Origin: Candidatus Bathyarchaeota archaeon
GTDB lineage: Archaea > Thermoproteota > Bathyarchaeia > Bathyarchaeales > Bathycorpusculaceae
Length of the DNA stretch: 64,000 bases
Direction: 5' to 3'
Assembly (NCBI GenBank): GCA_963782525.1
Contig: CAWAKC010000001.1
Location: 32,001 to 96,000 of the forward strand
The stretch's first letter is position 1. Each line of letters starts with the position of its first letter. The translations under genes were made by a program, and so were the position numbers. Shown in pieces: positions 30,338 to 49,057 of the stretch. The notes under the pieces were generated by a model. The model was not told where the DNA came from. It saw nothing but the letters and a program-made list of their open reading frames with translations, and searched no databases.

Positions 30338-31042
30338 ATGCAAAAAAGAGTCTTGCTCGCTGCTTCCATTCTCGTATTATCTCTGCTTGTTATGCTACAA
30401 GGCTTGCTAGTCTCGGATGCTAATCCTCTCCCTTGGTTTGCTGACCCTCAAATGAGTGTGTCTATCCAGTTTCCAACGAATGGAACCATTACTTCTCTTC
30501 CTGTTTGGGTGAATTTTACTTCTCTGGGTGATGGACAGTTTACTGTCTCTGATGACACTACAAAAGAGTGGGTTAGATCATTCTTCTACGTCATAGACGA
30601 GCAGAATATGAAGACGTCGGGTTTGAGGTTTGAAACAAAAAACACCACAATCACAGGTCCAAGCGCACCAAAATATTGCAGCAACTTTAGTGGGCAAGCG
30701 TGCATAACGAACTTGGAAGATGGCCCGCATACAATAACGGTCTATTATGGTGCAGTCAATAGAATTAGTTATGTTGGTACTCCACAAGAAAGCATATACT
30801 ATAGTCCATACTGGCAAGCTACTGCTCAATTCTATGTTGATAGTAACCTTGCCTCAGGTCTCACTATTACTCCAAGCCCAACCCCAACCCAAAGTATACC
30901 TACAATTAACACAGGTGACACATTGCCTGTTGAGTTGAATCCCTCAATAGTCTATATCACACTGGCCATTGTGACTGCAATAATAGCGGTTGCTTCAATC
31001 ACATTGGTTTACTTCAAGAAACACAAACGCAATGCAGTTTAG
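30338..31042 (+). CDS. Array ANP-type Ig-like surface protein
   Basis: Signal...DANP, core shared with 32581, PTINTGDTLPVELNP stalk, TM, YFKK. Confidence 0.82.
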   Translation: MQKRVLLAASILVLSLLVMLQGLLVSDANPLPWFADPQMSVSIQFPTNGTITSLPVWVNFTSLGDGQFTVSDDTTKEWVRSFFYVIDEQNMKTSGLRFETKNTTITGPSAPKYCSNFSGQACITNLEDGPHTITVYYGAVNRISYVGTPQESIYYSPYWQATAQFYVDSNLASGLTITPSPTPTQSIPTINTGDTLPVELNPSIVYITLAIVTAIIAVASITLVYFKKHKRNAV

Positions 31043-31145
31043 TCGCTGTTTTAGTGATTAAGCAAAGAACTACAAAGTAGACACTATGGGGAAATTGTAA
31101 TATATTTAGTTAATAATTGATATTAAATTAGCTAAGTGACTGCAA

Positions 31146-31373
31146 ATGGAAGACCCGATGGATAGGATACTAATAGACCCAGAAGTTCTCTCTGGCAAAC
31201 CAGTCATTAAAGGAACCCGCATTCCAGTCTATCTTATCCTCGACCTTTTTGCAAGTGGCATGACACAAAAAGAAATCCTAAATCAGTATCCCACACTGAA
31301 AAAAGAAGACATCAAAGCTGCACTTGTTTATGCTTCAAAATGCCTGGAGAATGAAGAAACAATAGTGATCTAA
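31146..31373 (+). CDS. DUF433-family antitoxin
   Basis: IDPEVLSGKPVIKGTRIPV..IL...ASG....IL.QYP.L..EDI.AAL.YA. Confidence 0.92.
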   Translation: MEDPMDRILIDPEVLSGKPVIKGTRIPVYLILDLFASGMTQKEILNQYPTLKKEDIKAALVYASKCLENEETIVI

Positions 31374-31389
31374 TAAGAGCTGCGCATTC

Positions 31390-31749
31390 TTGGTTAAAAT
31401 GATAGTTGATGAAAATATCCCAAGGGATGTGCAGAAATGGTTATCCAAGAAAGGTTTCGAGACAGTAAACATTTCGAAAATTCTTCCTAGAAGTGCCAAA
31501 GACAAAATCATAGTGGATTACGCTATAAAAAACAAATTGCCAATCATCACCCTCGACAAAGGTTTTGCTCAAATCTACCGTACTTTTCAAAAAGGAACCT
31601 CGCTTACAATCTTGATAGTGAAGGCCAACCCTCCAACACCAATTAATATTATTGAAACTTTAAATTTAGCTCAAAACAAAATGAATCTGAAGGAAATACA
31701 AAACAAACTTGTCATTATTACAAAAAGGAAGATACGAATAATCTCTTGA
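31390..31749 (+). CDS. PIN-like toxin (DUF5615/VapC45-like)
   Basis: IVDENIP, D..I..YA, IITLDKGF; downstream of DUF433. Confidence 0.88.
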   Translation: MVKMIVDENIPRDVQKWLSKKGFETVNISKILPRSAKDKIIVDYAIKNKLPIITLDKGFAQIYRTFQKGTSLTILIVKANPPTPINIIETLNLAQNKMNLKEIQNKLVIITKRKIRIIS

Positions 31750-31827
31750 ATTGTTTCTATTAAATAACCAAACTTTTTTGTGCTGCAATTTTCGAATAGA
31801 GCTTACGGGGTTAGTCAAGAAACGGGC

Positions 31828-31900
31828 AAACCTTAGACAAGAAAGCTTGACAAAAAATCTCTTAAGCAAACTCGTTCGCATAATATATCAGGAATGGTAT
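31828..31900 (+). promoter_or_regulatory. Module B promoter
   Basis: aaaccttagacaagaaagcttgacaaaaaatctcttaagcaaactc...ggtatATG; an inverted box ggttagtcaag lies at 31809. Confidence 0.7.
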
Positions 31901-32584
31901 ATGCCAAAGAAACTCTTGGCAACAACAATCATCCTAACAATAGCAATTACAACGTTATCAGCAATACCTACGTCAAAGGAAAATTTTATTCCAGTTCCAG
32001 GATTGTATATTCAATCACCATACGATTCAAAATATTCTGGCTCTCTAAGCAAATCTATTCCACTTTGGATTGAAGCAGGTCTTCCAGCAGGTGCGCCAGC
32101 AGTTGTTTCCATTAGCTACAGTCTTGATGGACGTGCAAACGTTACCTTTCCTAAGTTGACACATGAGACGTATTATCCTACCCCTTGCAATGTTCCGATG
32201 AATCCTGACATTTATTTTAATAGGGATGTAACGTTGGATAATTTAACTGATGGAACCCATACGGTAAAAGCTTATTCTCTTGATGCCAATGGTAATGAAA
32301 TGTCGGCTTCAGTAGTTTTTACAGTTAGCTCATATTTTGATCCAGACATTTATACTAAGGGAATTTATCCATCACCAACCCCAATAGTTAAGGCGGAACC
32401 AACTAAGATTACAGAAACCCCAACCACAAACCCATTAACTGCTTCTCCAACTCCAGATCAAGGCATAGATTCTAATTATTGGGTAAATCCAATTGCTCTT
32501 ATTGCAATTGCTTCTGTGATTGTGATTATAGCTGTAACTTCAATCTCCTTGGTTTACTTTAGGAGAAGGAAGGGGAAGCCATGA
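31901..32584 (+). CDS. Array Ig-like surface protein, MPKKLLA leader class
   Basis: ENFIP, ISYSLDG, L.DGTHTVKAY..D, TM, YFRRRKGKP. Confidence 0.82.
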   Translation: MPKKLLATTIILTIAITTLSAIPTSKENFIPVPGLYIQSPYDSKYSGSLSKSIPLWIEAGLPAGAPAVVSISYSLDGRANVTFPKLTHETYYPTPCNVPMNPDIYFNRDVTLDNLTDGTHTVKAYSLDANGNEMSASVVFTVSSYFDPDIYTKGIYPSPTPIVKAEPTKITETPTTNPLTASPTPDQGIDSNYWVNPIALIAIASVIVIIAVTSISLVYFRRRKGKP

Positions 32585-33261
32585 AGAGAAGATATGCTGC
32601 ATTTGTTGCAATCTTTGTTGTCTCAATATTGACTGGGATACAAGCAGTGGAGGATGTGAATGCTAATCCAGTTCCTCCTCCTTGGATGAATGCAAAACTC
32701 TCGGTTACTATTGAAAGCCCAGCAAACGGCTCAATCCAAAGTCGGTCATTTCTGGTTAGGTTTCATGCCGATGGCTCTCAATTTTCACTCACAAATAGTA
32801 GCATTGGAGGTTATGGTGGAGATTTCTTCTATATTTTAGATAGTCAACAATGGAGCGATATGCGTTATTCAGGAGCAAAAATATGGGATACCAAAATTGA
32901 CGATAACCATAATTTTACCGGACAAGTTTACCTGAGTAATATTGCTGCGGGAAGCCATTCCATAACCGTCTATTGGGGGGTAAAAGTCAACGTTGGAATA
33001 TTAACTGATGCAGCTTGGGCTGGAACTTCACAATTTAGTGTGGACTCAAAGTTGACACCCCAACCAACAAACAACCCAACAGCAACCCCCACACAAACAC
33101 TCTATCCATCACCATTAGAAATCTCATTGCCAACGGCAAATCCGACCGTGACTTACTTGTTGACAAATTCAACGTTTCTAACTGCAATAGTTGTTGTAAT
33201 TGCAACAGTGGCAATTGCTTCAATCTCAATAGTTTACTTTAGAAGAAGAGGGAAGCCATGA
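32581..33261 (+). CDS. Array ANP-type Ig-like surface protein, MKRRYA leader class
   Basis: NANP, IESPANG, GSHSITVY, TM, YFRRRGKP; ATGA-coupled. Confidence 0.82.
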   Translation: MKRRYAAFVAIFVVSILTGIQAVEDVNANPVPPPWMNAKLSVTIESPANGSIQSRSFLVRFHADGSQFSLTNSSIGGYGGDFFYILDSQQWSDMRYSGAKIWDTKIDDNHNFTGQVYLSNIAAGSHSITVYWGVKVNVGILTDAAWAGTSQFSVDSKLTPQPTNNPTATPTQTLYPSPLEISLPTANPTVTYLLTNSTFLTAIVVVIATVAIASISIVYFRRRGKP

Positions 33262-33899
33262 AGAGAAGATATGCTGCATTTGTTGCAATCTTTGTTGTCT
33301 CATTATTGATTGGGATACAAGCAGTTGAGGTAGCAGATGCTAATCCGTATGGGTTTACTTTTCCCACCAGTACCTCTCCACCTGACGCCTTTGTTGTTTC
33401 CATCAAAGTCCTAAGCCCAAAAGAAAATGCAACCTATACAACTGATACAATCAACGTTTGCTTCACCAAAGAAGTCAATAGCCTCCCTGGAATAACCACC
33501 TATGTGCATATAATAAGCACTTATCAGGGAGATTGGATGAACAGCAGTAAATGGTGCCCCTTCCCACCTGGGGCAGATGCGGAGCATTGGAACAGTTTTC
33601 AGGTCTTACAGCACAACTTTACCCTTACCCAAGTACCCCAAGGATACCACACGCTGACCATCGACGCTGAGGGACAAGGGAATTATAATGTAAACGGAAC
33701 AGAGTATAACTTTGGCCTCCAAAAGAAGGTAGACGTGCACTTCTACATAGATTCAAAGAATAATCAAACTTCAAATCCTGCTACCATAAATCCAACTCCC
33801 TCAATCCCAGAGTTCTGCATAGCAAGCGCCATATCTGTGCTAGCTGTTGCGTCTGTTTGTTTGGTTTCCTATAAGAGGCGCAAGCCTAAAACCGCTTAG
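33258..33899 (+). CDS. Array ANP-type Ig-like surface protein with IPEF-TM tail
   Basis: DANP, SPKENATY, TYQGDWM, PQGYHTL, PSIPEF + TM + YKRRK. Confidence 0.82.
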   Translation: MKRRYAAFVAIFVVSLLIGIQAVEVADANPYGFTFPTSTSPPDAFVVSIKVLSPKENATYTTDTINVCFTKEVNSLPGITTYVHIISTYQGDWMNSSKWCPFPPGADAEHWNSFQVLQHNFTLTQVPQGYHTLTIDAEGQGNYNVNGTEYNFGLQKKVDVHFYIDSKNNQTSNPATINPTPSIPEFCIASAISVLAVASVCLVSYKRRKPKTA

Positions 33900-34246: not shown

Positions 34247-34318
34247 GATATCCCCGCTTTAGTTTAATCGTACTCTGCTTATAGTTTTTTCAGTCAAAGG
34301 GTCCAAAATGAAGGAAAT

Positions 34319-34356
34319 GTAAAACTTCATAAGGCAACAGTAACCAATAGCGATTG
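34319..34356 (+). promoter_or_regulatory. Module A repeat
   Basis: gtaaaacttcataaggcaacagtaaccaatagcgattg. Confidence 0.7.
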
Positions 34357-34362
34357 TTGGAT

Positions 34363-35001
34363 ATGAGTAGAATAGCTGTTTTAGCTGTACTTCTTACAGT
34401 CTTTATATTGGTTGGCATAGGAGTAGTTGGTATAGCAGATGCTAACCCCTTTGCTTTCTATTCACCTATCGAACCAATCCAAGGAACAATTCCGCCAGTC
34501 ATCACCATTTATAGTCCAAAAAACGACTCAATCTATCCAGGCTCAATTGACGTTGGCTTTAACGTTAGCAAACCAGAATTAGAAGACGCATACTTGACAA
34601 ACGTTGTTAGCGTTACCTACTCTTTAGATCAAAATGAAAGCATTGAAGTCTACTCCAACTACATCCAAGGACATGGGACAGAAGGAATACCAGCGTTTAA
34701 CACGACTTTTACGTTACCTCCGTTGCAAGCTGGAAATCATAAGTTAACAGTGACAGCAACTGGAGTAGTGCTAAAAGCACTAGTACCGAAACCTCAAGGA
34801 TTTGGAGACATAGGCGTTTTTTACGTAAAAAGCAACTCAACAATCCTTTTCATGGTAGGCACTCCAACGATACCGCCACAAGCTTCAGCTAACACACTTG
34901 AGCCAATATTGCTTATTGCAATACTTGGGATAGTGACGATAGTAATTGTTGCGGCAGTCTTATTGGTTTTCTTTAAGAGGCGTAAGTCTAAAACTGCTTA
35001 G
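34363..35001 (+). CDS. Array ANP-type Ig-like surface protein
   Basis: DANPF, GTIPP.I.I.SP, YSLD, AGNHKLTV, TM, KRRKSKTA. Confidence 0.82.
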   Translation: MSRIAVLAVLLTVFILVGIGVVGIADANPFAFYSPIEPIQGTIPPVITIYSPKNDSIYPGSIDVGFNVSKPELEDAYLTNVVSVTYSLDQNESIEVYSNYIQGHGTEGIPAFNTTFTLPPLQAGNHKLTVTATGVVLKALVPKPQGFGDIGVFYVKSNSTILFMVGTPTIPPQASANTLEPILLIAILGIVTIVIVAAVLLVFFKRRKSKTA

Positions 35002-35087: not shown

Positions 35088-36059
35088 ATGCCAAAGAAAC
35101 TGTTGGCAACAACAATCATCATTGCAACAGTCATAGCGTCAGTCGTTAGCACACTTGGTATTGAGACAGTGAATGCCAATCCCTTCCCCATGTCTACTAT
35201 GGGAATTGGTTCCCCACAAAGTTATACCACGTTCATCTATCAAAATACAACTATTCCTCTCACAAATGCATTAAATCTTTGGAAGGATGATACTTCAGGG
35301 GCTTATCCTCAAATAACTCGCGTTACGTACAGTTTGGATAATCACGAGAACATAACAATATCAGAAATTCCCAAGTCAGGAACAGAAACCCCTCAAAGAA
35401 ACATTTTTGGGACAATTAAAGGATATATTCTTACTATATTAGTTAAAGCAACACTAACCAATCTCTTAGAGGGCAAACACACACTCAATGTATATTCATT
35501 TGATACTACAGGTGCAGCATTGTCAGATTCTGTTACCTTTGCTGTTTTAACCTCCTATAGTATACCTGAAGTGACAATTATTTCGCCTCAAGACCAAGTC
35601 TACAGAACCAGCGAAATCCCATTAACTTGCGCTGTAAAAGGAGATTATGAGCAGCTACGTTATACAATAGATTACCAGTATAACGTGACATTTTCGAGAA
35701 ATACAACCATAAACATATCGGGCTTACAAAATGGATGCCACACGATAACCGTTCATGCCACCACTCCTGGACGCTATGGCGGTTCAAGTTGGACCTACTT
35801 TATTGTTGGCACGATAAATTATTCCCTGCCAAATCCCACGGCTTACCCAACCAACCCTGCCCCTTCACCAACAGAAACAATCAATTCTACACCAAGCCCA
35901 ACCTCAAGCCAGAGTATGCCTACAATTAACACAGGTGCTACATTGCCTGTTGAGTTGAATCTCCCCATAGTCTATATCGTACTAGCTATCGTAATTGTAA
36001 TAGTGGCTGTTGCTTCAATCTCACTGGTTTATTTTAGGAGAAGAAAGGGGAAGTCATGA
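35088..36059 (+). CDS. Array two-Ig-domain surface protein, MPKKLLA leader class
   Basis: NANP, two YSLD/Y.ID...G.H.L.V repeats, PTINTG.LPVELN stalk, YFRRRKGKS. Confidence 0.82.
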   Translation: MPKKLLATTIIIATVIASVVSTLGIETVNANPFPMSTMGIGSPQSYTTFIYQNTTIPLTNALNLWKDDTSGAYPQITRVTYSLDNHENITISEIPKSGTETPQRNIFGTIKGYILTILVKATLTNLLEGKHTLNVYSFDTTGAALSDSVTFAVLTSYSIPEVTIISPQDQVYRTSEIPLTCAVKGDYEQLRYTIDYQYNVTFSRNTTINISGLQNGCHTITVHATTPGRYGGSSWTYFIVGTINYSLPNPTAYPTNPAPSPTETINSTPSPTSSQSMPTINTGATLPVELNLPIVYIVLAIVIVIVAVASISLVYFRRRKGKS

Positions 36060-36817
36060 AGAAAAAATATCCTTTATTTGCAGTAATCTTTGCAGTTTCA
36101 ATGTTGATTGGGATACAAGCAGTTGAGGTAGTGGATGCTAATCCGGTTCCTTGGCAGTTCACACCTAATCTAGAAAAGCCATTTTTAACAGTGATGGGTC
36201 CTCAAAACCTAACGGCCTATCCTACTTACAATATTCCAATTACTTATTCAGTGGTCAAACCTAGCTCATGGGATGCAACCTATTGGTATTGGCAATATAT
36301 TGGAGAGATAGATTCAGTTGATGTTAGGATGGATGGAGAACCTGTTGCTTACTATACAAAGTCCCAAGATGTTACTTATCAAGGTGGAATCAATAAAACG
36401 GTGTACCATTCAGAATCAGAAAAAAACCTATTAAACAATACAATAACACTCAATCAAACAACTATTGGTTTCCATACACTAAGCATTACCATTCTTTCCT
36501 ACACCTATTACAAGGGTCCTCTCTACTCAAATACTGACACTAAAACTTCTACAACCTCAAATGGGCAACCAATCTATCAACACCCAGTAATTGTATCTTC
36601 AACCATGTCCTTCACTATGAATTCAAATGGTTTGATTATTATTGCTCCAACTTCAACTCCTACTCTTAGTCCTACTGTAGAACCCCCAACCTCAGCTAGC
36701 GAAAATCCATCTATGGCTTTTTCTTCAAGCAATTTAGTAATAATAAGTTTGGTTGTAATAGTGGCAGTTGCTTCTGTCTCATTGGTTTACTTTAGGAGAA
36801 GAAAGGGAAAGACATGA
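36056..36817 (+). CDS. Array ANP-type Ig-like surface protein (ANPVPW subfamily)
   Basis: VVDANPVPW, KP.SW, NQT..G.H.L, TM, YFRRRKGKT. Confidence 0.82.
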   Translation: MKKKYPLFAVIFAVSMLIGIQAVEVVDANPVPWQFTPNLEKPFLTVMGPQNLTAYPTYNIPITYSVVKPSSWDATYWYWQYIGEIDSVDVRMDGEPVAYYTKSQDVTYQGGINKTVYHSESEKNLLNNTITLNQTTIGFHTLSITILSYTYYKGPLYSNTDTKTSTTSNGQPIYQHPVIVSSTMSFTMNSNGLIIIAPTSTPTLSPTVEPPTSASENPSMAFSSSNLVIISLVVIVAVASVSLVYFRRRKGKT

Positions 36818-37395
36818 AGAGACTTAGGTTAATGCTGACAGCATTATCTCTTTGCTTGTTGGTTGGTTGTTTGATGAGTATTGAAGTGGGAGAGGCTAAC
36901 CCTTTCATTTTCAATAAAATAATGGACCCAGTTGAAGGCACCATTCCCCCTGATATCTCTATTCTAAATCTAAGAAATCAATCAACTTACTCAGATGTAA
37001 TTAACGTGAATCTTCATGTAGATAAGCCTAGGTTGAATTCATCTTGGGCTTCTATAACATCCGTATATTACACGTTAGACTCAAATAAAAAAGTAGAAGT
37101 CTATTACTGTCTTGCCAATGGAGCGAAAACCAAAGGAGTTCAAGAGTATGATAATGCCTTTAACTTATACTTCTTGAGTGCAGGAAATCATAGCTTAACC
37201 ATAGAAGCAAATGGAGTAGTGATGCCCAATGGTGAGGGCTTGAGTTCAGACTTGTTCTGGATTAGCAGCAGCTCAACAATCAACTTTAATGTTGGAAACC
37301 AAGCCTTTCTCATAACAACAATTGTTTTAATTATTTTAGTACTGACTGCTTCCTTTCTGTTAGTTTACTTTAAAAGAAGGAAGAAGAAGCTATGA
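36814..37395 (+). CDS. Array ANP-type Ig-like surface protein, RLRLML leader class
   Basis: EANPF, GTIPP core shared with 34363, TM, YFKRRK. Confidence 0.82.
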   Translation: MKRLRLMLTALSLCLLVGCLMSIEVGEANPFIFNKIMDPVEGTIPPDISILNLRNQSTYSDVINVNLHVDKPRLNSSWASITSVYYTLDSNKKVEVYYCLANGAKTKGVQEYDNAFNLYFLSAGNHSLTIEANGVVMPNGEGLSSDLFWISSSSTINFNVGNQAFLITTIVLIILVLTASFLLVYFKRRKKKL

Positions 37396-38159
37396 TAAGA
37401 AGAACTGCTCCGTTTGCTGCAATACTTGCAATCTCAATATTGATTGGGATACAAGTTGTTGAGGTAGTAGATGCTAATCCTGTTCCTTGGCTGTCTACGC
37501 CTAACCGAGAAAAACCTACTCTTACCCTTCAATTTCCAACAAATCAAACAACGTATAAAACCGAAGTTCCTGTCGACTTTAATGTGACTGCGCCTGAATC
37601 GTGGGCTACATACGCTACGCGATTGGTTGGAACCAATCACTATGTTGGAGAAGTGAAGTACATCGCGGTTTACTTGGATTCCAAACCTCTCATCAATTAT
37701 ACTACGGGCAGAATCGTGTCATATTTTTACGGAAACAAGACAAACTATTATATTAGTGGATTTGACGGTAAAAGTGCTCATTATTCGTTTAACTTGAATC
37801 AGACTACCTCTGGAAACCATGCGCTTAATGTTACTGTTTTCTCCTATACATATGCGGATGGAGACCCCACCGATGACACTGCCATTGCTTTCGAAACTGG
37901 TTTAATCAACGGCGAACCCATCTACGCGTACAAGTACCCTAATGTCGTTTCTGAAGTAGTTCACTTTACGGTAGAGCAACCAACCCCAACCCAAAATCCA
38001 AATGCTAACGGCTCTGCTTATTTGCTAAATCAAACAAATCTTATTTTGATAGCTATTGTGATTGTAATATTGGCTGTTGCTTCAATCTCGTTGGTTTACT
38101 TTAAGAGAAGAAAGGGCAAGCTGACAAGTAAGCCAGCCATAGTAAGAGAACCCAAGTAA
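37392..38159 (+). CDS. Array ANP-type Ig-like surface protein (ANPVPW subfamily, IVREPK tail)
   Basis: VVDANPVPW; the 3' end lies in the exact 214-bp repeat. Confidence 0.82.
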   Translation: MIRRTAPFAAILAISILIGIQVVEVVDANPVPWLSTPNREKPTLTLQFPTNQTTYKTEVPVDFNVTAPESWATYATRLVGTNHYVGEVKYIAVYLDSKPLINYTTGRIVSYFYGNKTNYYISGFDGKSAHYSFNLNQTTSGNHALNVTVFSYTYADGDPTDDTAIAFETGLINGEPIYAYKYPNVVSEVVHFTVEQPTPTQNPNANGSAYLLNQTNLILIAIVIVILAVASISLVYFKRRKGKLTSKPAIVREPK

Positions 38160-40557: not shown

Positions 40558-41403
40558 ATGCCAAAGAAACTCTTGGCAATAATAGCTATAGTTTTTTTAG
40601 GGATTACAAGTCTATCCACTGAGTCTTTTGTTACTGCCAATTTTATTCCAACTCAACCAGAAATTAAAATAAACACGCCTATGCAGACAGAACTGAAAAT
40701 CTACCAGAACATTTCAGTGCCTCTACTTGTTGATATCAAAGAAACAGTAACTTCCTACATGCCCCGTCACTTTCCAGAAATAAGTCACATATACTACAAA
40801 TTAGATGGGCAAGAAGCTAAAGAATTTACCAACATAACAAAGTCTGAGGAAGATTGGTTTAGCGGCAGATGCATGCAGTATTTTGCATATACAACTTTAG
40901 ATAACTTAGACGATGGGAATCATACCTTAACTGCTTTCTGCCAAGATGATACTGGAAGACAACTAAGGTGCTCAAGAATTTTTGAGTACAGTACTCAATT
41001 CACAGCTCCAGAGGTTGGCCTGCTATCACCTATAAACAAAACATATCCTATAACAGACAAATTGCCATTAACTATTGTTGCTGATGACTTTATCACCTTG
41101 AGATATTCATTGGATGACAACACACTTTTAAATCACTGGTTTTCTCAAGATAACACAACCCTGACAGGACTAACAGAGGGCAAGCACACGTTATATATCA
41201 ATGTGCATACCAGAAGAGGGTTTGTTTCCCAAACAGCTAACTTTATTCTAAGTAACAATACTGATGATTCCCAGAACTTACAACCTTCTATGACGACAGA
41301 AGAAGCTGCATTAATTATTCTAAGTACTATAGTGGTTGCAGTGGTCTTAGCTGTTGCTTCCTTGTTATTGGTTTACTTTAAGAGAAGAAGGGGGAAACCA
41401 TGA
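40558..41403 (+). CDS. Array two-Ig-domain surface protein, MPKKLLA leader class
   Basis: TANFIP, core shared with 43450, TM, YFKRRRGKP. Confidence 0.82.
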   Translation: MPKKLLAIIAIVFLGITSLSTESFVTANFIPTQPEIKINTPMQTELKIYQNISVPLLVDIKETVTSYMPRHFPEISHIYYKLDGQEAKEFTNITKSEEDWFSGRCMQYFAYTTLDNLDDGNHTLTAFCQDDTGRQLRCSRIFEYSTQFTAPEVGLLSPINKTYPITDKLPLTIVADDFITLRYSLDDNTLLNHWFSQDNTTLTGLTEGKHTLYINVHTRRGFVSQTANFILSNNTDDSQNLQPSMTTEEAALIILSTIVVAVVLAVASLLLVYFKRRRGKP

Positions 41404-42104
41404 AGAGAAGGATAGCTACCTTTGCTGTACTTCTAGTAATCTTGATGCTGGTTGGAACAGAAGTAATTGGTGTTGTTATTGCTAATCCTATGGTCCCAAA
41501 AAATTCAGATAGCGGTTTTGAGAAACCAGCTATAATAATAAAAAGTCCACTAAACAATGAGGCGCTAAATAACACTAGCAATCTGTACCTTAACTTTGTT
41601 GTTAACTATCCCCCATCATGGAAAAAGATACAGATTGATAATTATACTCTAGGGCATGTAGATTCATTAGATGTATGTATTGATGGAGTAGTAAGCGACC
41701 ACTTTGTTAATAGCTATAGCTGCACTGATTCTAATTACAACTTTACAGATTTCTGCGTTAACTTAAAGACTTTAGACCCCGGCTCTCATCTAGCTAATGT
41801 TACAGTCTACACTCACTCATATTCCCTGGGATATATTGCGGGGATTAGCGACACTTCTTTTCCTCCCTTAGACACCTCTTTTGGGACTATGTATGGCTTC
41901 CCCATAACTGTCTTTGAGACAGTAAATTTTACTCTAAATGAACAGATTCTACCAAGCCCAACATTAGCCCAAAGTATACCTACAATTAACACAGGTGACA
42001 CATTGCCCGTTGAGTTGAATCCCTCCATACTGGCTATCGCAATAGTAATAGTGGCTGTTGCTTCAACCTCACTAGTTTACTTTAGAAGAAGAGGGAAGCC
42101 ATGA
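41400..42104 (+). CDS. Array ANP-type Ig-like surface protein
   Basis: IANP, KP.I.I.SP.N, PGSH.ANVT, PTINTGDTLPVELNP, YFRRRGKP. Confidence 0.82.
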   Translation: MKRRIATFAVLLVILMLVGTEVIGVVIANPMVPKNSDSGFEKPAIIIKSPLNNEALNNTSNLYLNFVVNYPPSWKKIQIDNYTLGHVDSLDVCIDGVVSDHFVNSYSCTDSNYNFTDFCVNLKTLDPGSHLANVTVYTHSYSLGYIAGISDTSFPPLDTSFGTMYGFPITVFETVNFTLNEQILPSPTLAQSIPTINTGDTLPVELNPSILAIAIVIVAVASTSLVYFRRRGKP

Positions 42105-42781
42105 AGAGAAGCTATGCTGTATTTGCTGCAGTATTTGCTGTTTCAATATTGATTGTGGTGCAAACAATTGAGGCAGCAAAGGCCAATCCTGTTCCTTGGC
42201 CTTCTGCACCAATCTTCGATAAGCCTACTATAACAGTGCAGACTCCGCAAAACAATACAGTGTTTGCTTACAACGCCACCGATGTTTGGCTCAACTTCAC
42301 AATAGCAAAGCCTGACTCGTGGACGATACAGCATTTGGTTACAATTCCGATGGTGAAAGAAGAATCAGTGGAAGCCCAGTTGGATGGAAACGCAGTTTAT
42401 CGTGGATGGTCCCGAGAAAAGGTCGCCGTCAAACTGGATTTAAATCAGTCAGCCCCAGGGCTACATACGTTGAATGTAACTATCCTTATGAACAGTTATT
42501 ATAGGGGGGCAGCATACAACGGCTCCCATATTGTCTCCGATATCTATAGTAGTAGCGGTCCAGTCTACCAGTATCCCTGGGCTACCTCCCAAATAGTTTA
42601 CTTTGCAGTTGAGCAACCAACCCCAACCCAGACCTCACCTACAAATTCGGGTTCAATGTTGCCGGTTGAGTTGAATCCCGCAATCCCCTATATCATCTTA
42701 GCAGTTGTCATCGCTATAGTAGCTGTTGCTTCTATTTCATTGATTTACTATAAGAGAAAGAGAGGGAAATATGAGACTTAG
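42101..42781 (+). CDS. Array ANP-type Ig-like surface protein (ANPVPW subfamily)
   Basis: KANPVPW, KPDSW, PGLHTLNVT, LPVELNP, TM. Confidence 0.82.
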   Translation: MKRSYAVFAAVFAVSILIVVQTIEAAKANPVPWPSAPIFDKPTITVQTPQNNTVFAYNATDVWLNFTIAKPDSWTIQHLVTIPMVKEESVEAQLDGNAVYRGWSREKVAVKLDLNQSAPGLHTLNVTILMNSYYRGAAYNGSHIVSDIYSSSGPVYQYPWATSQIVYFAVEQPTPTQTSPTNSGSMLPVELNPAIPYIILAVVIAIVAVASISLIYYKRKRGKYET

Positions 42782-43328
42782 ATTAATGCTAACAGCATTA
42801 TCTCTTTGTTTGTTGGTTTGTTGTTTTACTATTGTTGAAGTGGGAGATGCTAACCCCTATAGTTACCCTTCATTATGGATAGAATCACCTAAAAACACAA
42901 TTTACAATACAACAGATGTCAAAATAGCATTCCACACAGACACACCAATTAGATACCCAGAAATTGTTAAAATGTCTTACAGTCTTGATGGTACAGCCAA
43001 CACAACACTAAGCATCTCAAAGACGCAGACCTTCCAGTTTGGAAGTTTTAGCGCTAGCTCACGCATTTCATACGTAGGAACAGGACTTTTAACGGATCTC
43101 AGCAATGGCACTCATTCACTTGACGTGTATGCACTTGATTCTAAAGGCACAACAATGACCTATCCCACAGGAAGAACTTTTCAGGTAAATATTACCCCTA
43201 AAAATGAACAGCCTCTACCAATAAGCAACATAACAATCATTCTAGTGATAACTATAACTGCTGTGACAATAAGCTCAGTTTTAACCGTCACACTTCTTAA
43301 TAGAAAAATGAAGAGAGCCAACAAGTAA
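42771..43328 (+). CDS. Array ANP-type Ig-like surface protein, RLRLML leader class
   Basis: DANP, IESPKN, MSYSLDG, NGTHSLDVYALD, TM. Confidence 0.82.
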   Translation: MRLRLMLTALSLCLLVCCFTIVEVGDANPYSYPSLWIESPKNTIYNTTDVKIAFHTDTPIRYPEIVKMSYSLDGTANTTLSISKTQTFQFGSFSASSRISYVGTGLLTDLSNGTHSLDVYALDSKGTTMTYPTGRTFQVNITPKNEQPLPISNITIILVITITAVTISSVLTVTLLNRKMKRANK

Positions 43329-43449: not shown

Positions 43450-44319
43450 ATGCCAAAGAAACTCTTGGCAACAACAATCATCCTTTTGATAGCAATTACT
43501 ATGTTACCCTTAACTCCTGTCGCACGAGGAAATTTTATTCCTCCTACAAGTCCTGAAATTATAATTCTTGAACCAAAACGTCAGAACGTTATAATCTACG
43601 AAGACACGCCTATTCCCATAATAGTAACTATAACGGAGCCAGAAAACGTTTCACACTACCACCAAATCACTAACATCACCTATAGCATAGACGGAAAACC
43701 AGAAGTGGAAATTACCAACATAACAAAGAAGACCAATCAGGCATATTTTAGCGGAAAAACAGCCACTGATTATCTTGCATACGCTACCATAGACACCGTT
43801 GAAAGAGGCAGCCATATCTTATCGGTTTATGCCCTCGATGATGCTGGAAACCGTTTGCCAACAAAAACAGGATTTGCATACCAAAGCATTGACAAATATC
43901 CAAACGTCACCATTTTTTCTCCCTTAAATACGACCTATTTTAACACAACCAAATTGACCCTAAATTACACGGCTGATAACTTCATAATGGCATCTTATTC
44001 TTTGGATGGTGTAGACAATGTTTTTTATGACGCCCAAAATGGAACTGTGCACTCACGCTCAGGACTAAACAACGGAGAGCATACAATTCTGCTACGTGTA
44101 TCTACTGAATTTGGATGGTTCTCACAAACAATCAAATTTGCGGTATATGGAGCAGATTTCCAGGCACATTATCAGAATCTACCACTGATACCTTCTAGAG
44201 AAACTTCCGATAGAAGCCCAGTCCCGATTGTTTTGATTATCGTGGTTGCGGTTGTGGTTTTTTCAATTGGGGGTTTGCTGGTTTTCCTTAGGAGGAAGGG
44301 AATTAATGAGGCAAAGTAG
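43450..44319 (+). CDS. Array two-Ig-domain surface protein, MPKKLLA leader class
   Basis: GNFIP, YSIDG and YSLDG domains, TM, RRKG. Confidence 0.82.
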   Translation: MPKKLLATTIILLIAITMLPLTPVARGNFIPPTSPEIIILEPKRQNVIIYEDTPIPIIVTITEPENVSHYHQITNITYSIDGKPEVEITNITKKTNQAYFSGKTATDYLAYATIDTVERGSHILSVYALDDAGNRLPTKTGFAYQSIDKYPNVTIFSPLNTTYFNTTKLTLNYTADNFIMASYSLDGVDNVFYDAQNGTVHSRSGLNNGEHTILLRVSTEFGWFSQTIKFAVYGADFQAHYQNLPLIPSRETSDRSPVPIVLIIVVAVVVFSIGGLLVFLRRKGINEAK

Positions 44320-45223
44320 TGCTCTTTTTGCCGCGGTATTTCTGGTCTCAATGTTGATTGGGATACAAGCAGTTGAGGTAGTAGATGCTAATCCTTACAT
44401 GTTCCTGCAATTTACAAGAATAAAGATTCATTCGCCTCAATCCCATGTCTATGTTTGTCCTAACGTAGACTTATCTTTTGACTATTACACAGAAACTAAT
44501 TCGCCCAAAGTTGATTCTTTCTCATATAGCTTAGATGGCAAAGCTAACTCTACATTGGTTAGTAGCAAATCAAGTATTCTTCATTTTATCAAGTATTCTG
44601 TCTTTAAGACTTTAGAAAACTTATCCAACGATAATCATAAGCTAATAGTTTATGCTCATTTTTCTAACAATACAGTATTTTCAATTTTGGACCAAAAAAT
44701 AGTTGTAGACACAGCATACATTCAACCCACTCCCTTTATGATTTCTCCTTTAAACCAAACAACGTATAATGCTAGAGAAATAGATGTAGCTTATACAATA
44801 GATGCAAAAATATTCTATTATAGGTATGACTTAGATAACAGATATAACAAATATTATGATTCTTCTAAATCAATAAGTGTTAATGATAGTGCAACCTTAA
44901 CTAACGTAGGTCTTGTGGGCAACACAACGTTAATTAACCTCTCTGACGGTTCCCACAAGCTAAAATTAATTTTGACAATACAGCCCTATGAACGCTATTA
45001 CTCTGAAACATGTTTTGTAACAGTCTACTTTAATGTGGATTCAGATGAGCCAAGTCCAAGTCTAACCCCAAATACTACTGCCTTGATGCCCACTGTAAAT
45101 AGTGGTCCATATGTAGATTTGGCTATGAGTTATTTTCCATATATCGTTGGATTGGTTGCTGTTGTAATTGTACTCATTGTGGGCTTATTGGTTTACTTTA
45201 AGAGGAGAAAGGGGAAGCCATGA
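44306..45223 (+). CDS. Array two-Ig-domain surface protein
   Basis: MRQSSALF...IGIQAVEVVDANP, FSYSLDG, LSDGSHKL, YFKRRKGKP; ATG at 44306. Confidence 0.82.
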   Translation: MRQSSALFAAVFLVSMLIGIQAVEVVDANPYMFLQFTRIKIHSPQSHVYVCPNVDLSFDYYTETNSPKVDSFSYSLDGKANSTLVSSKSSILHFIKYSVFKTLENLSNDNHKLIVYAHFSNNTVFSILDQKIVVDTAYIQPTPFMISPLNQTTYNAREIDVAYTIDAKIFYYRYDLDNRYNKYYDSSKSISVNDSATLTNVGLVGNTTLINLSDGSHKLKLILTIQPYERYYSETCFVTVYFNVDSDEPSPSLTPNTTALMPTVNSGPYVDLAMSYFPYIVGLVAVVIVLIVGLLVYFKRRKGKP

Positions 45224-45972
45224 ACCGAAAATATGCTGAATTTGCTTCAGTGTTATTGGTCTTTTTTGTTATTAGTGAATTTGGCAGCTTTTTTGCTGCT
45301 GCAAACTGGGCGCCCATCTATGCTAACGTAGAAATCTCACCTCAGAGCGTTGGGGCAACACCGCCAACTATCACCTTTCTATCTCCCGAAAATGACCGAA
45401 CATATGGAAGAAACCTAACGTTGCACTGCAACATAAGCGTTGGAACCGTTTCCCACCAAAACATGTCTTGCGGCATAGAAAACCTCTACTATCAAGCAGA
45501 CTGGGAAACTCAACCGACAAAGGTCATACGGCTGCAGTTAAGCAAGGACGGTTATGAGTGGGATACGATAATAACAGGCACCGTAAACTCTGACTTTACC
45601 GAATACTCAAACAACCTAACAGCCCCCACTGAAGGAAAACATAGCATAACCTTCTGGGCAGCTGAAAAAGGAAGCTACCAAGTGGACATTGGAAAACAAT
45701 TCCCCGCAGAGAGAATAAACGTCTACACCTTCCATATCAACAGTTCCCAAACAGTAGCTTTCACCGTGAGCAACTCTCCACCAGTTGAGCAACCAACCCC
45801 AACCCAAAACTCAAACGCTACTGAGTCCGATTATTTGCTGAATCAAACAAATCTTATTTTGATAGCTATTGTGATTGTAATATTGGCTGTTGCTTCAATC
45901 TCGTTGGTTTACTTTAAGAGAAGAAAGGGCAAGCTGACAAGTAAGCCAGCCATAGTAAGAGAACCCAAGTAA
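45220..45972 (+). CDS. Array Ig-like surface protein (core of 39576, tail of 37392)
   Basis: AANW, EISP..V.A.PP, EGKHSIT.WA.E.GSY, IVREPK tail. Confidence 0.82.
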   Translation: MNRKYAEFASVLLVFFVISEFGSFFAAANWAPIYANVEISPQSVGATPPTITFLSPENDRTYGRNLTLHCNISVGTVSHQNMSCGIENLYYQADWETQPTKVIRLQLSKDGYEWDTIITGTVNSDFTEYSNNLTAPTEGKHSITFWAAEKGSYQVDIGKQFPAERINVYTFHINSSQTVAFTVSNSPPVEQPTPTQNSNATESDYLLNQTNLILIAIVIVILAVASISLVYFKRRKGKLTSKPAIVREPK

Positions 45973-46222: not shown

Positions 46223-47542
46223 ATGAGAAAGGGCAACGCAGCAGTAATCATTTCTGTAATTATGATGAGCGTAACATTTTTTGCAGAAGAAACTTTGGTA
46301 ACGGCTAACCTGAATCCACCAGCAATCGAATGGAGCAAGAGCTATTCCTACGGCACGTACAGTGGAATCTACGCTATGATTCCAACAGCGGACGGCGGCT
46401 TCGCTTTGGGTGGCACTGTAACTCAGTTGGGTACGCCTGGAGCGACTACCAGCGATATGTGGCTGCTCAAGGTTAACTCCCAAGGCGATAAGCTGTGGGA
46501 ACAAGGCTTAAGCAGTGCATATCTCAATTTGGGGGGAATCGTCTCCCTTGTTCAAGCCGATGATGGTGGATACGTCTTAGCAGGCGAATCAGTGTTCGGC
46601 AGCTCGCATCTTGTCAAGACCGATTCGTCAGGTAATGTAGTTTGGACTCGGGCCTACGATAACATAGCTTTACAGACCGTCATAAAATGTCGAGATAATG
46701 GATATGCAGTCGCTGGCACAATTAACAATGGCAACTCAGACTTCTGGCTGGCTAAAATTACAGAATCCGGCGCAATGCAATGGAATCAAACTTACGGAGG
46801 CATAAACATTGACTTGTGCAACTCACTAATTCAAACTAGTGACGGTGGCTTTGCGCTTGCAGGTTCAACCTCTAGCTTTGGTTTAGGAAATGCAGACATG
46901 TGGCTAATCAAAACTGATAGTTACGGTTCAATGGTTTGGAACCAAACATATGGCACTCAAGAGAACGATGCTGCAGATTGTGTGATTCAAACCACTGATA
47001 ATAATTACGTGTTATCAGGATACACGATGCACACCTCAGGAAACAATTTTGAATCTTTTGCATTGTCTATGATTAAAACTGATTCCTCTGGTAAGGTTCT
47101 TTGGAGCAAAACCTACAGCCAACACATCGATACCACGTATTTATCTGTAATCAAGACGAAGGATAGCGGGTATGCTCTAGCAAGCGATTTTGGGATTATA
47201 AAAACCGATTCGTCGGGGGCAATTCAGTGGAGCCTACCCTATGGAGGGACGTATTCCCTAATTCAAATCGACAACGCCTACATCCTCGCTGGCACCACTT
47301 CTGGTTCGTCAGCAGCAAGCGGCTGGATAGCGAGCACAACTGAAACACAGACTATAGTTTCTCCGAGCACTCAGCCTGCCACATCCTCAAGTCCAACCTC
47401 TGCAGTGACACCGACAACACCTATAACTGGGCTATTATTCTATCAAGAAACCATGATAGCGGTTGCTTCTATGATCATAATAATAGCCGTTGCTTTTGTC
47501 ATATTCGTTTATTACAAGAGGCGTAAGTCTAATGCCGCTTAG
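46223..47542 (+). CDS. QTSDGG-repeat beta-propeller surface protein with array-type TM tail
   Basis: TANLNP, repeated D.WL.K.D..G...WNQTYG, YYKRRKSNAA; ATG 46223 preferred. Confidence 0.85.
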   Translation: MRKGNAAVIISVIMMSVTFFAEETLVTANLNPPAIEWSKSYSYGTYSGIYAMIPTADGGFALGGTVTQLGTPGATTSDMWLLKVNSQGDKLWEQGLSSAYLNLGGIVSLVQADDGGYVLAGESVFGSSHLVKTDSSGNVVWTRAYDNIALQTVIKCRDNGYAVAGTINNGNSDFWLAKITESGAMQWNQTYGGINIDLCNSLIQTSDGGFALAGSTSSFGLGNADMWLIKTDSYGSMVWNQTYGTQENDAADCVIQTTDNNYVLSGYTMHTSGNNFESFALSMIKTDSSGKVLWSKTYSQHIDTTYLSVIKTKDSGYALASDFGIIKTDSSGAIQWSLPYGGTYSLIQIDNAYILAGTTSGSSAASGWIASTTETQTIVSPSTQPATSSSPTSAVTPTTPITGLLFYQETMIAVASMIIIIAVAFVIFVYYKRRKSNAA

Positions 47543-47551
47543 CCAAAAAAT

Positions 47552-47590
47552 GTAAAACTTCATAAGGCAACAGCAACCAATAGCGATTGG
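47552..47590 (+). promoter_or_regulatory. Module A repeat
   Basis: gtaaaacttcataaggcaacagcaaccaatagcgattgg. Confidence 0.72.
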
Positions 47591-47597
47591 TGGATAT

Positions 47598-48455
47598 ATG
47601 CGCAGTTTATTGTCGCTGCTGACAATTCTGGTCCTACTCGGGGCAACTGCAGGCATGTTTTTACCCGTTAATGCTAACCCGAATCTAATTTTAGATCCAG
47701 TTCCAAGTGCGCCGGCTCCAGCGGGCGTCCAAATCATCTTTGACATGGAGGCCCCAAAAGAAAACGCAACATACGTCAACGGAACAGTTAACGTGGTCTT
47801 CAACGTAACAGTTGACGGACCAAGTCAAATTAACGGACAACCGCTCAACAAGCACCTTATGTTGACGACCTACCAGGGAGATTGGATGCAAAAAAGTGAA
47901 TGGGCGCCTTCGAGGATTTTCCAAACCTTACAATTCTACCCATATAACTTTAGCATCTTTGGCATACCATTTGGAGAGCATACTCTAAACTTCACGACCC
48001 ATGCACAAGGCAATTTTGTCTTAGCAAATTACTCTGGTCGCGTTTATAATCTGGAAAAAACCATCTCTTGCAAGTTCTTTGTTCTCGCAAATCCCATTAT
48101 TGAATTCTCTTTACCTCAAAACGCCAACTCCACAACCTCGTCTTTTCCCTTGAACTTCACCATTGACCACCCTGTTACAGAAATGTCTTACCGGTTAGAT
48201 GGGCTAGAATCCGTTCCAATCACCGGAAACACCACGTTAACCGACCTACATTATGGTCAACATAATGTTACTGTTTACGCAACCGACGAGTTTGGCTATA
48301 CTGGCAAATCAAACACTCTCCTCTTCAACGTTAACTCTCCAGAGGTTGGAGAATTTTCATTGGTGCCCTCGGTGGTTCCTTTCGCGATTGCCGCCATCGC
48401 GTTAACTGTTGCCGGCTTGTCGGTTTATTTTAAGAGAAGAAGAGGGAAGGTATGA
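47598..48455 (+). CDS. Array two-domain Ig-like surface protein (first domain shared with 33258)
   Basis: NANP, PKENATY, TYQGDWM; second domain SYRLDG...GNTTL...G.HNVTVYATD. Confidence 0.83.
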   Translation: MRSLLSLLTILVLLGATAGMFLPVNANPNLILDPVPSAPAPAGVQIIFDMEAPKENATYVNGTVNVVFNVTVDGPSQINGQPLNKHLMLTTYQGDWMQKSEWAPSRIFQTLQFYPYNFSIFGIPFGEHTLNFTTHAQGNFVLANYSGRVYNLEKTISCKFFVLANPIIEFSLPQNANSTTSSFPLNFTIDHPVTEMSYRLDGLESVPITGNTTLTDLHYGQHNVTVYATDEFGYTGKSNTLLFNVNSPEVGEFSLVPSVVPFAIAAIALTVAGLSVYFKRRRGKV

Positions 48456-49057
48456 AGAGTAGGATACCTCTTTTTACCGTGATACTTGCAATCTCATTAT
48501 TGGTTGGAGAATTAAACATTGAAGTAACAAATGCTAACTTTTATCCAATCCCTTCAATATACATCATAGGTTACAATCCAACCTATCCAAATGGCAACAA
48601 CTATACCTTCACTGTGGAAGCGCATATTTCTATGGATGCCCCAGGAATTGTTTCCATCAGCTACAGCTTAGATGATAAAAAGAACATCACCTCTTCTAAC
48701 TTAAAATACACCACTTGGATGAAAGATAATGGACCAAACAATCACCAAATTTACTCCATAACAGAATACCTCTATAACTTAGAGATTGGAAACCACACAA
48801 TCAATGCTTATGCAACGGATTCAACGGGAAAAGTACAATCAACTAATCATCAGTTTACAGTGGACAACTCAAATATCTCTAATTCAATTACTCCAACTAT
48901 AAGCCAAAACCCCCCAACAATTAACACCGGTCCCAAAACGCAAGTTGGGTTAAATCATTCTATAGTCTATATCACACTGGCCCTTGTGATTGTGATAGTT
49001 GCTGTTGCGTCAATCGCATTGGTTTACTTTAAGAGGCATGAGTGTAGAATGCCTTAG
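48452..49057 (+). CDS. Array Ig-like surface protein
   Basis: NANF, ISYSLD, GNHTINAYATD, PTINTGP, TM. Confidence 0.8.
   Translation: MKSRIPLFTVILAISLLVGELNIEVTNANFYPIPSIYIIGYNPTYPNGNNYTFTVEAHISMDAPGIVSISYSLDDKKNITSSNLKYTTWMKDNGPNNHQIYSITEYLYNLEIGNHTINAYATDSTGKVQSTNHQFTVDNSNISNSITPTISQNPPTINTGPKTQVGLNHSIVYITLALVIVIVAVASIALVYFKRHECRMP

Follow-up and report, generated by a model that had tools for sequence, protein, structure and literature searches.

The 64,000-nucleotide stretch of DNA analysed here (the window; positions 32,001 to 96,000 of contig CAWAKC010000001.1, assembly GCA_963782525.1, Candidatus Bathyarchaeota archaeon) carries an array of 21 head-to-tail open reading frames (ORFs) whose products share a short motif, A-N-(P/F/W), at the end of a predicted secretion leader. 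The host genome is archaeal and comprises 2.87 Mb in 12 contigs, the window being a part of contig C1 that starts at C1:32001, and an archaeal 16S rRNA gene lies within the window itself (62006-63497, minus strand). The usual plan of the array genes consists of a basic N-terminus, a hydrophobic Sec-type leader, the motif in the form [A/G/E]-N-[P/F/W/L], an immunoglobulin (Ig)-like ectodomain in which N-x-S/T is abundant, a Pro/Thr linker, and at the C-terminus a hydrophobic transmembrane (TM) helix with a basic tail (YFKRRKGK-like). A C-terminal hydrophobic stretch with basic residues was found in 20 of the 21 window proteins; the product of the gene at 38252 has no such anchor. The whole genome holds 34 genes of the motif-bearing family. 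Coordinates of the motif codons and of the DNA modules described below are collected in Table 1.

The initial annotation of this DNA had reported about 20 proteins with Asn directly after the predicted leader cleavage, and this was borne out by 21 genes whose motif codons run from 30419 to 48541, in agreement with the annotated 30418-48540. DANP occurs seven times, NANP three times, and EANP, LANP, IANP, KANP, TANF, NANF, AANW, TANL, KENF, TENF and RGNF once each. It had also described the motif as spanning unrelated leader classes and as mostly encoded by GCTAAY or GCCAAT. We found at least four leader classes that end in A-N (MKRRYA..IGIQAVEVxDA; MPKKLLATT..; MKRLRLMLTALSLCLL..; and the leaders of operon-head genes), and the codon statement holds in 17 of the 21 genes. 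In the window, Ala is encoded by GCT (13), GCC (4) or GCA (1) and is replaced through GAA in two genes and GGA in one; Asn is encoded by AAT (14) or AAC (7), and Pro by CCT (6), CCC (4), CCG (3) or CCA (1). The degenerate word GCHAAYCC is present 35 times, against 12.7 +/- 3.0 in 100 shuffles of which none reached 35, and 14 of these 35 occurrences lie at leader ends.

Table 1. Gene array, motif codons and repeated DNA modules in the window (coordinates are those of the window).
Feature	Position	Strand	Detail
Gene array	30338..49057	+	21 head-to-tail ORFs
A-N-P GCT AAT CCT (DANP)	30419..30427	+	operon-head leader
E-N-F GAA AAT TTT (KENF)	31979..31987	+	MPKK leader, Glu at -1
A-N-P GCT AAT CCA (NANP)	32662..32670	+	overlap-type leader
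A-N-P GCT AAT CCG (DANP)	33339..33347	+	
A-N-P GCT AAC CCC (DANP)	34441..34449	+	operon-head leader
A-N-P GCC AAT CCC (NANP)	35175..35183	+	MPKK leader
A-N-P GCT AAT CCG (DANP)	36137..36145	+	36137 is the exact joint in a metagenome contig with another leader
A-N-P GCT AAC CCT (EANP)	36895..36903	+	
A-N-P GCT AAT CCT (DANP)	37473..37481	+	
E-N-F GAA AAT TTT (TENF)	38333..38341	+	protein without C-terminal anchor
A-N-P GCC AAT CCC (LANP)	39660..39668	+	
A-N-F GCC AAT TTT (TANF)	40636..40644	+	MPKK leader
A-N-P GCT AAT CCT (IANP)	41481..41489	+	
A-N-P GCC AAT CCT (KANP)	42182..42190	+	
A-N-P GCT AAC CCC (DANP)	42849..42857	+	
G-N-F GGA AAT TTT (RGNF)	43528..43536	+	MPKK leader
A-N-P GCT AAT CCT (DANP)	44387..44395	+	contigs of two runs match from 44386, other leader
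A-N-W GCA AAC TGG (AANW)	45301..45309	+	
A-N-L GCT AAC CTG (TANL)	46304..46312	+	
A-N-P GCT AAC CCG (NANP)	47673..47681	+	
A-N-F GCT AAC TTT (NANF)	48533..48541	+	contig C7 paralog: same mature part, MPKK leader, homology from GCT onwards
47-nt leader core	36098..36144	+	codes S-M-L-I-G-I-Q-A-V-E-V-V-D-A-N-P; copies 32623-32669, 33300-33346, 37434-37480, 42143-42189, 44348-44394
Junction module, ~180 nt	35975..36151	+	TM anchor and basic tail of gene n, ATGA stop/start overlap, leader of gene n+1; repeat family D2
Junction module copies	32500-32676, 33177-33353, 37311-37487, 41319-41495, 42020-42196	+	
MPKK-type leader module	31898..31992	+	after conserved intergenic stretch; copies 40555-40649, 43447-43541; D10-D13
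56-nt conserved upstream element	34316..34371	+	D8
56-nt element copies	29446-29501, 30290-30345, 38213-38268, 39529-39584, 46026-46081, 47549-47604		
Terminal module, 276 nt	37971..38246	+	linker, anchor, long tail, downstream DNA; D6; 95% identical to 45784-46059

The residue at +1, counted from the predicted cleavage site, sets the family apart from other anchored proteins of the same genome. By one crude signal-peptide rule, on which this comparison rests, Asn occupies +1 in 20 of 24 scorable family ORFs versus 5 of 87 other C-terminally anchored ORFs, where Gln (16) or His (12) is favoured. A second paralogous family, located outside the window and comprising 12 large (800-970 amino acids) C-terminally anchored proteins with PQQ-like beta-propeller and Ig-like parts, has an invariant His after the predicted leader cleavage, with the signature ..NA|H-x-P-x-W-x-x-P-T-Y/W (for example L060:110-2878, C1:317009, and L061:109-2667, C3:130408). 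Several surface families of the host genome thus each fix a +1 residue of their own, Asn, His or Gln. An N-terminal His with a free amine recalls the histidine brace.

For the A-N-(P/F/W) family we compared a set of 58 genes, 34 from the host genome and 24 from three other genomes of the same genus. Position -3 is occupied by V24, A20, S5, G4, T2, L2 and E1, and V/A/S/G/T at -3 and A/G at -1 are each found in 55 of the 58 genes, which fits the (-3,-1) rule by which alone the cleavage site was assigned. The features of a Sec class I signal peptide are present, with a basic n-region, a hydrophobic h-region and small residues at -3 and -1, and the genome encodes two homologs of archaeal signal peptidase I. 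Asn is therefore most likely residue 1 of the mature protein after a signal peptidase I cut. The motif was also found on passengers of a different fold. NosD/beta-helix proteins that carry family leaders start with N-P or N-F (P0049, 66 bits; P0047, 23.7 bits against a cut-off of 23.6; and a further ORF of the host genome, G000, at C10:180426, 62 bits), and beta-helix proteins of the window with other leaders start with Gln or Glu. Together with the (-3,-1) pattern, its presence on beta-helix passengers with family leaders suggests that the motif acts on the prime side of the site cut by the leader peptidase. Pro or a bulky residue in second place should also make an N-terminus resistant to aminopeptidases and to Asn deamidation. 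A signal peptidase dedicated to this family was rejected, there being no specific co-occurrence: the second signal peptidase I paralog was found in 92 of 101 genomes in the family-level group, among them some that lack the protein family.

A different fate of the leader can be imagined, in which signal peptidase does not cut at Ala|Asn and the leader either stays as a second membrane anchor or is released by self-cleavage at Asn|Pro through Asn cyclisation. Asn-Pro is a self-cleaving pair in some proteins, as in the NPTH site of FlhB/YscU-type proteins. The hydrophobic part and c-region of the leader are long (~24 residues) and unusually conserved, and 3 of 58 genes have Glu at -1, which is hard to reconcile with a strict signal-peptidase site. 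Against this, the classical signature at -3 and -1 recurs in the 55 genes counted for each position, the N-F, N-W, N-I and N-L variants are unfit for chemistry specific to Asn-Pro, and structure models contain no structured domain around the site (residues 23-31 with a predicted local distance difference test, pLDDT, below 50). We regard a retained or self-cleaving leader as scarcely credible.

The initial annotation had offered two readings of the motif, a crossover motif in the DNA or a conserved mature N-terminus, and had proposed over-conserved synonymous positions as the mark of the former. In the 58 genes Asn is present without exception (AAT 40, AAC 18). Position -1 is A54, E3 and G1, with Ala codons GCT 42, GCC 6, GCA 4 and GCG 2, and position +2 is P45, F10, W1, L1 and Y1, with Pro codons CCT 24, CCC 14, CCA 4 and CCG 3. 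Among the 34 genes of the host genome, 21 different 9-mers encode the motif and Asn codon use shows no difference from the family background (p=0.20, a type of value that overstates the case throughout this codon analysis, since the genes compared are kin). Leader codons further upstream are more fixed at synonymous sites than A-N-P (Ser -14, TCA in 27/29; Ile -9, ATA in 21/22; Gln -8, CAA in 28/28; Glu -5, GAG in 25/28), so that conservation of the DNA is not centred on the A-N-P word.

Distant homologs extend this picture. A profile search of 1.84 billion representatives returned 1279 homologs at E<=1e-3. Of the top hits, 138 were new; a starting Met followed by a leader is present in 113 of these, and 107 of the 113 have [AGSE]-N at the leader end (84 N-P, 9 N-F, 6 N-W and 8 other), the leader being called in these distant sequences by a rule of our own and at least 2 of the 8 'other' cases looking like artefacts of that rule. 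In 40 diverse members with a mean column identity of 25%, only two columns are invariant, N29 and W72. Matches at E<=1e-5 were obtained in 44 of 301 genomes of the class searched, including 28/48 in the own family-level group and 7/12 and 2/6 in two neighbouring groups. A|N is likewise retained in other genera and in a second family of the order, with Ala encoded by GCA, GCT, GCC or GCG and Asn by AAT or AAC, and the +2 residue in other genera is P, F, W, I or C. Leader DNA of distant homologs is unrelated and the Asn is kept. A second class of ectodomain, represented by the gene at 40558, retains [AG]-N-[FL]-I-P-T in 7 of 7 homologs. The conserved mature N-terminus is thus supported, Asn being fixed while the codons for Asn, Ala and Pro and the +2 residue vary, and the motif, whose absence from homologs was to have spoken against a protein role, is present in distant ones. 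Over-conservation of synonymous A-N-P sites was seen weakly and inside the genus only, and outside the genus it was not. At the level of codons, these comparisons show the predicted first residue, Asn, to be kept by purifying selection on the protein, the DNA word not being the target.

Searches against curated resources gave the family no match above cut-off. With a single family protein as query, no relative was found on the genome contigs, and the leader DNA pattern was scanned instead; a DNA pattern from the locus found 15 stretches, 12 in Candidatus Bathyarchaeota archaeon and 3 that are bacterial chance matches. In Pfam and NCBIfam, the Ig-like matches of the array proteins all lie below cut-off (best scores: Big_7, 23.0 bits against 24.1; Big_13, 21.7 against 27; OmpL47, 21.8 against 40), and the protein at 46100-47542, which bears the motif at 46304, is a weakly propeller-like passenger with an NCBIfam SBBP-repeat match far below cut-off. 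Three ORFs just beyond the array (49102-49545, 49567-49791 and 49873-50541) lie in different frames, show the repeat style of that protein with a weak SBBP-repeat match below cut-off, and look like one disrupted gene. The Pro/Thr-rich linker, TM helix and basic C-terminal tail resemble those of archaeosortase substrates (PGF-CTERM, Heimdall-CTERM), and two Exosortase_EpsH-family genes are present in the genome. Unlike such substrates, the array proteins have no conserved tripeptide before the TM helix, and none of the 21 reached the cut-off of a curated NCBIfam model of a C-terminal sorting signal (best scores, in one protein each, LPXTG with 13.1 bits versus 15.9 and Heimdall-CTERM with 11.6 versus 24). 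Searches of the literature brought up neither an account of this Bathyarchaeia family nor one of archaeal leaders with a conserved Asn at +1. What is new here is the undescribed family of surface glycoproteins in Bathyarchaeia; the modular style of evolution is itself known.

The full-length product of the gene at 36056 was modelled by AlphaFold2 (AF2) as a beta-sandwich with a pLDDT of 73.2. As a monomer, its mature ectodomain alone formed a complete sandwich (pLDDT 80.3, predicted template modelling score 0.74), and the first ten mature residues had a mean pLDDT of 77 and formed no strand. Foldseek returned nothing from the PDB at E<=1e-3, a wide structure search with VIA-align gave generic Ig/FnIII folds only (best Z 8.4), and a PDB sequence profile search gave nothing meaningful, with one match at E=0.18.

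These models bear on the idea that the invariant Asn at the N-terminus serves, with the aromatic/Pro arm that follows it, as an assembly end: once the leader is off, the arm would dock into a neighbouring subunit as a donor strand does, or the N-terminus would be cross-linked. Mostly V/I/Y/F is found at +3 and W/Y/F at +5, and many of the paralogs lie in operons. P, F, W, I, L and Y at +2 slow Asn deamidation and would protect an amide that is needed, and it is these residues that follow Asn here. A precedent for a conserved residue 1 is given by the thread subunit Saci_0406 of Sulfolobus acidocaldarius. Gaines et al. (2022, PMC9715654) describe the residue after its Sec/SPI site (Asp24) and a YYY motif as conserved, with an N-terminal strand that complements the subunit next in line and an isopeptide bond from the alpha-amine of Asp24 to Asn57 of the next-but-one subunit. 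Saci_0406 (PMC9715654) is like the array proteins, as these are predicted to be, in being an archaeal, Sec/SPI-processed surface protein with a beta-sandwich head, a strictly conserved first residue followed by aromatics, and heavy N-glycosylation, and unlike them in starting with Asp rather than Asn and in forming threads whose subunits, lacking a TM anchor and soluble once cleaved, polymerise by donor-strand complementation. Structure and PDB profile searches found no sequence relation, and no specific fold relation, of the family to Saci_0406 threads. Several observations speak against an assembly end. The sandwich of the AF2 monomer is already complete and the arm is not modelled as a strand; a TM anchor is present in every subunit, which sets the family apart from thread, chaperone-usher and bundling pilins (subunits free of a TM anchor are a trait of donor-strand pilins, and 20 of the 21 window proteins are anchored); N-P and N-F are also found on beta-helix passengers without an arm; and the invariant columns include no conserved Lys or acidic partner. 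An assembly role of the N-terminus seems to us very unlikely.

At the level of DNA, the most conspicuous repeat is a 47-nt leader core. As the initial annotation had noted, the copies at 36098-36144 and 44348-44394 are equal in 46 of 47 bases and identity collapses directly after GCTAATCC. Genome-wide there are 10 copies at <=14 mismatches, all of them within leaders and all sense; no antisense or stand-alone copy of the 47-mer was found in the genome at this threshold. For the core, the RNAalifold consensus of 18 junctions (-5.3 kcal/mol) contained 0 covarying pairs, and a single core sequence (z=-1.29) had no significant structure. The core is embedded in a junction module that reaches from the last part of one gene into the first part of the following gene (Table 1). 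At overlap junctions, such as 36024-36058, the purine-rich tail codons (R-R-K-G-K) place AGGGG five bases before the next ATG. The 3' end of the 16S rRNA reads ..CACCTCCT, and its CCUCC can pair with this AGGGG, so that the codons of the basic tail probably double as a ribosome-binding site for translational coupling. The 56-nt element sits 0-70 nt upstream of the first gene of each array operon, and is probably, we infer, the shared promoter region of the family.

We examined where DNA homology between family genes begins and ends. The 36 nt that precede the Ala codon are at least 85% identical in 74 gene pairs; in 45 of these pairs identity breaks at nt 8-9, counted from that codon, and in 59 at nt 5-12. 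In three pairs that have the same mature part and leaders of different classes, homology begins at GCTAAY. Among 194 stored proteins, 85 pairs are at least 60% identical in the mature part and at most 30% in the leader, 1150 pairs are the reverse, and 44 share both. P0001, P0002 and P0003 are a clear example, with mature parts 97% identical over the 40 residues compared and leaders 10-24% identical (two listed pairs, both with P0003). On a maximum-likelihood (ML) tree of 55 mature domains, a quick one on which the change counts rest, leader class requires 21 changes (minimum 4, shuffled mean 25.9), and the well-supported branches alone require at least 9 changes for the commonest leader class. 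Codon identity at identical residues is 0.846 (1484/1755) in the leaders of 180 pairs with unrelated mature parts, and 0.84 (236/281) in the mature parts of 6 pairs whose mature parts are related. Leader DNA is thus young, or constrained, relative to the parts to which it is attached.

Natural mosaics were also present in four other metagenome runs, whose word share of 0.17-0.21 means that the contigs possibly come from related organisms and show the existence of such joints, not their frequency. One contig joins a 41400-type leader to the mature part of the gene at 36056 exactly at 36137, the first base of the Ala codon (41473>36137). In contigs of two runs that carry a different leader, the match starts at 44386, the base that precedes the Ala codon. 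The anchor contains two further joints (45190>36027 and 42738>41367) and the linker one (45781>42606, where 25 bases are shared). At 17 metagenome loci with the leader core, two pairs of which are identical over the stretch shown, the next bases are GCTAAT in 15, GCTAAC in 1 and GCCAAT in 1, the last in a broken gene. Loci L067 and L079 have the core and mature part in common and differ in the 5' half of the leader, which gives the 47-nt core a sharp 5' edge too. Degenerate members were seen as well: the metagenome locus L080 has a leader, a changed +2 codon and an early stop, and G002:C7:9712-10428 consists of leader-only and anchor-only fragments flanked by two intact genes. The array has the traits of recombining tandem paralogs, namely conserved flanks (repeat families D1-D13), segment histories that are incongruent, and breakpoints in conserved segments.

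If the motif were a site for site-specific recombination read as constant residues, as the initial annotation had suggested by analogy with shufflons, the array would resemble that of R64. In an R64-type shufflon, inverted sfx repeats and the Rci tyrosine recombinase invert segments. The likeness is that of a short conserved word in coding DNA, placed where the constant part of a surface protein meets the variable part. The array differs in that the 21 genes and the 10 leader-core copies without exception have the direct (sense) orientation, with no inverted site, in that no recombinase is nearby, and in that the third positions of the word vary (two codons for Asn, four for Pro and the 21 9-mers noted above). 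A Pfam scan of 41 window ORFs found no recombinase; the 8 Phage_integrase (PF00589) matches of the genome are all outside the window, the nearest at C1:2818-3339, and Resolvase PF00239, the serine recombinase, had no match in the genome. Breaks are found, moreover, in the linker, the anchor and mid-leader. On the grounds of orientation, the absence of a recombinase from the window, and synonymous sites that vary and are less fixed in A-N-P than in the upstream leader, we rejected a shufflon-like crossover motif and consider any such site highly improbable.

The reading that we prefer, and to which we give a probability of roughly two thirds, is that A-N-(P/F/W) is the cleavage-site end of the secretion leader in a large, undescribed family of Bathyarchaeia type-I surface glycoproteins encoded by modular, recombining genes. 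With Ala at -1 and Val or Ala at -3, signal peptidase I would cut such that Asn becomes mature residue 1. Asn would be followed by Pro or an aromatic residue, then by a Pro/aromatic-rich arm of ~10-15 residues, and then by the first strand of the Ig-like sandwich. Asn-Pro would provide both the right prime-side context for leader removal and an N-terminus that is protected chemically and proteolytically. The genes are mosaics of junction plus leader, ectodomain cassette, and linker plus TM anchor plus basic tail, with modules reassorted often by ordinary homologous or microhomology-mediated recombination. The comparisons show that DNA homology stops at A-N-P because these are the last constrained codons of the leader module, and since modules are frequently reassorted the A-N-P codons are a recurrent seam and not a recombinase site. 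The claim that the motif marks a recombination seam accordingly stands as far as leader swaps and mosaic contigs break at the Ala and Asn codons, and falls as far as it called for a site-specific crossover motif.

A number of observations count against this reading. The Ala codon is biased, with GCT in 22 of 31 cases in the host genome as compared to 36% in the family background (p=2e-4, again a value overstated by kinship), and this bias, together with GCTAAT at 15 of 17 loci after the core, leaves room for a contribution at the DNA level within the genus. Glu at -1 in 3 of 58 genes should be unacceptable to signal peptidase I, so that Asn would not be residue 1 there. Six of the 113 distant homologs lack Asn, and it is therefore not needed for folding. 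The need for Asn over any small polar residue lacks an explanation. Leaders are no more alike within genomes (0.709) than between them (0.735), and simple gene conversion thus fails to explain their synonymous conservation; by the same figures, concerted evolution within the genome found no support as the sole cause of leader likeness. Finally, breakpoints fall exactly on the motif, and it is likely that the shared 8-9 bases are used as a joint and are more than a module edge. These bases are probably where tracts end or where microhomology joins form.

Some of the same observations can be taken further, to the proposal that A-N-P and the 47-nt core are kept in part because they act, in frame, as one arm of microhomology or homology for the exchange of cassettes or leaders between genes, the anchor module being the other arm; DNA-level selection for evolvability would then be added to the constraint on the protein. 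Breaks at nt 8-9 in 45 of 74 pairs, the three leader-swap pairs that start at GCTAAY, the mosaic contigs that break at 36137 and 44386, a leader class that is nearly random on the mature-domain tree (21 changes vs 25.9 shuffled), the P0001/P0002/P0003 group with its like mature parts and unlike leaders, leader synonymous sites conserved at 0.846 across genes with unrelated mature parts, the GCT bias and the sharp 5' edge of the core in L067 and L079 all fit such an arm. Outside the genus, however, all four Ala and both Asn codons are used and the word itself is not conserved, the core has no significant RNA structure and no antisense copy, and selection for intact cleavage sites after random events would leave exact seams too. 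In the present data, selection for evolvability is indistinguishable from its by-product. We consider a selected exchange arm unlikely. A bolder combination would have the 47-nt core and the anchor/tail module as portable homology arms of an archaeal cassette-exchange system that reshuffles the exposed domains of a membrane-anchored glycoprotein coat at high rate, with Asn, the amide-protecting +2 residue and the aromatic arm as its constant docking or cross-linking end, through which each new cassette would stay compatible with the coat; this we hold to be slightly more doubtful still.

For modular genes ending their leaders at a cleavage site, as we prefer to read the array, the closest described logic is that of the lpl cluster of Staphylococcus aureus, of which the array is the mirror image (Tsuru and Kobayashi 2008, PMC2568036). 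There, a short conserved DNA segment in tandem ORFs is a site of homologous recombination, and the evolutionary units consist of the 3' end of an ORF, the junction and the 5' end of the next, with incongruent phylogenies of neighbouring segments (PMC2568036). Both systems have tandem surface-protein paralogs, a conserved DNA segment and units across adjacent ORFs; in lpl, however, the conserved segment is mid-ORF and the two-ORF unit is variable, whereas in the array the two-ORF unit is conserved and the ectodomain variable, and lpl encodes bacterial lipoproteins where the array encodes archaeal type-I membrane proteins with an invariant +1 Asn. No phase-variable promoter, invertible element or silent cassette was seen at the array. 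In the vsp/vlp genes of Mycoplasma and the VSP genes of Giardia (with a constant TM segment and a short tail), a constant leader and/or anchor frames a hypervariable ectodomain; tandem paralogs are numerous in these families, and mosaics arise when their constant parts recombine. The array is alike in its plan of constant leader and anchor around a variable ectodomain, and unlike in belonging to archaea of soil and sediment, which face no host immune system, and in being organised as multi-gene operons with stop/start overlap.

Several further features surround the array. Ahead of it, 12600-29400 encodes further secreted or anchored proteins (PQQ-like beta-propellers and NosD-like beta-helices), and the window from ~12 kb to 50 kb forms a single large island of surface-protein genes. 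A DUF433 and DUF5615 (PIN-like) gene pair at 31146-31749, between the first and second array genes, is likely a toxin-antitoxin module. Just downstream of the array, a D5-like primase-helicase (D5_N, DUF5906; 51453-53939, minus strand) is a hint of an integrated mobile element in the vicinity.

The Bathyarchaeia are abundant archaea that remain uncultured and about whose cell surface next to nothing is known. The locus defines a large family without a Pfam or NCBIfam match above cut-off, and gives it a diagnostic signature: a leader ending in V/A-x-A, then Asn and Pro or an aromatic residue, and at the C-terminus a TM anchor with a basic tail. It also offers a clean archaeal example of surface genes built from exchangeable modules, in which the final part of a gene forms a conserved unit with the first part of the gene that follows. 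Annotators of such families should expect DNA identity to end sharply where leaders end, and a special recombination site is unnecessary to account for this. The fixed Asn provides a concrete target for metaproteomics, in the form of N-termini that begin with N-P.

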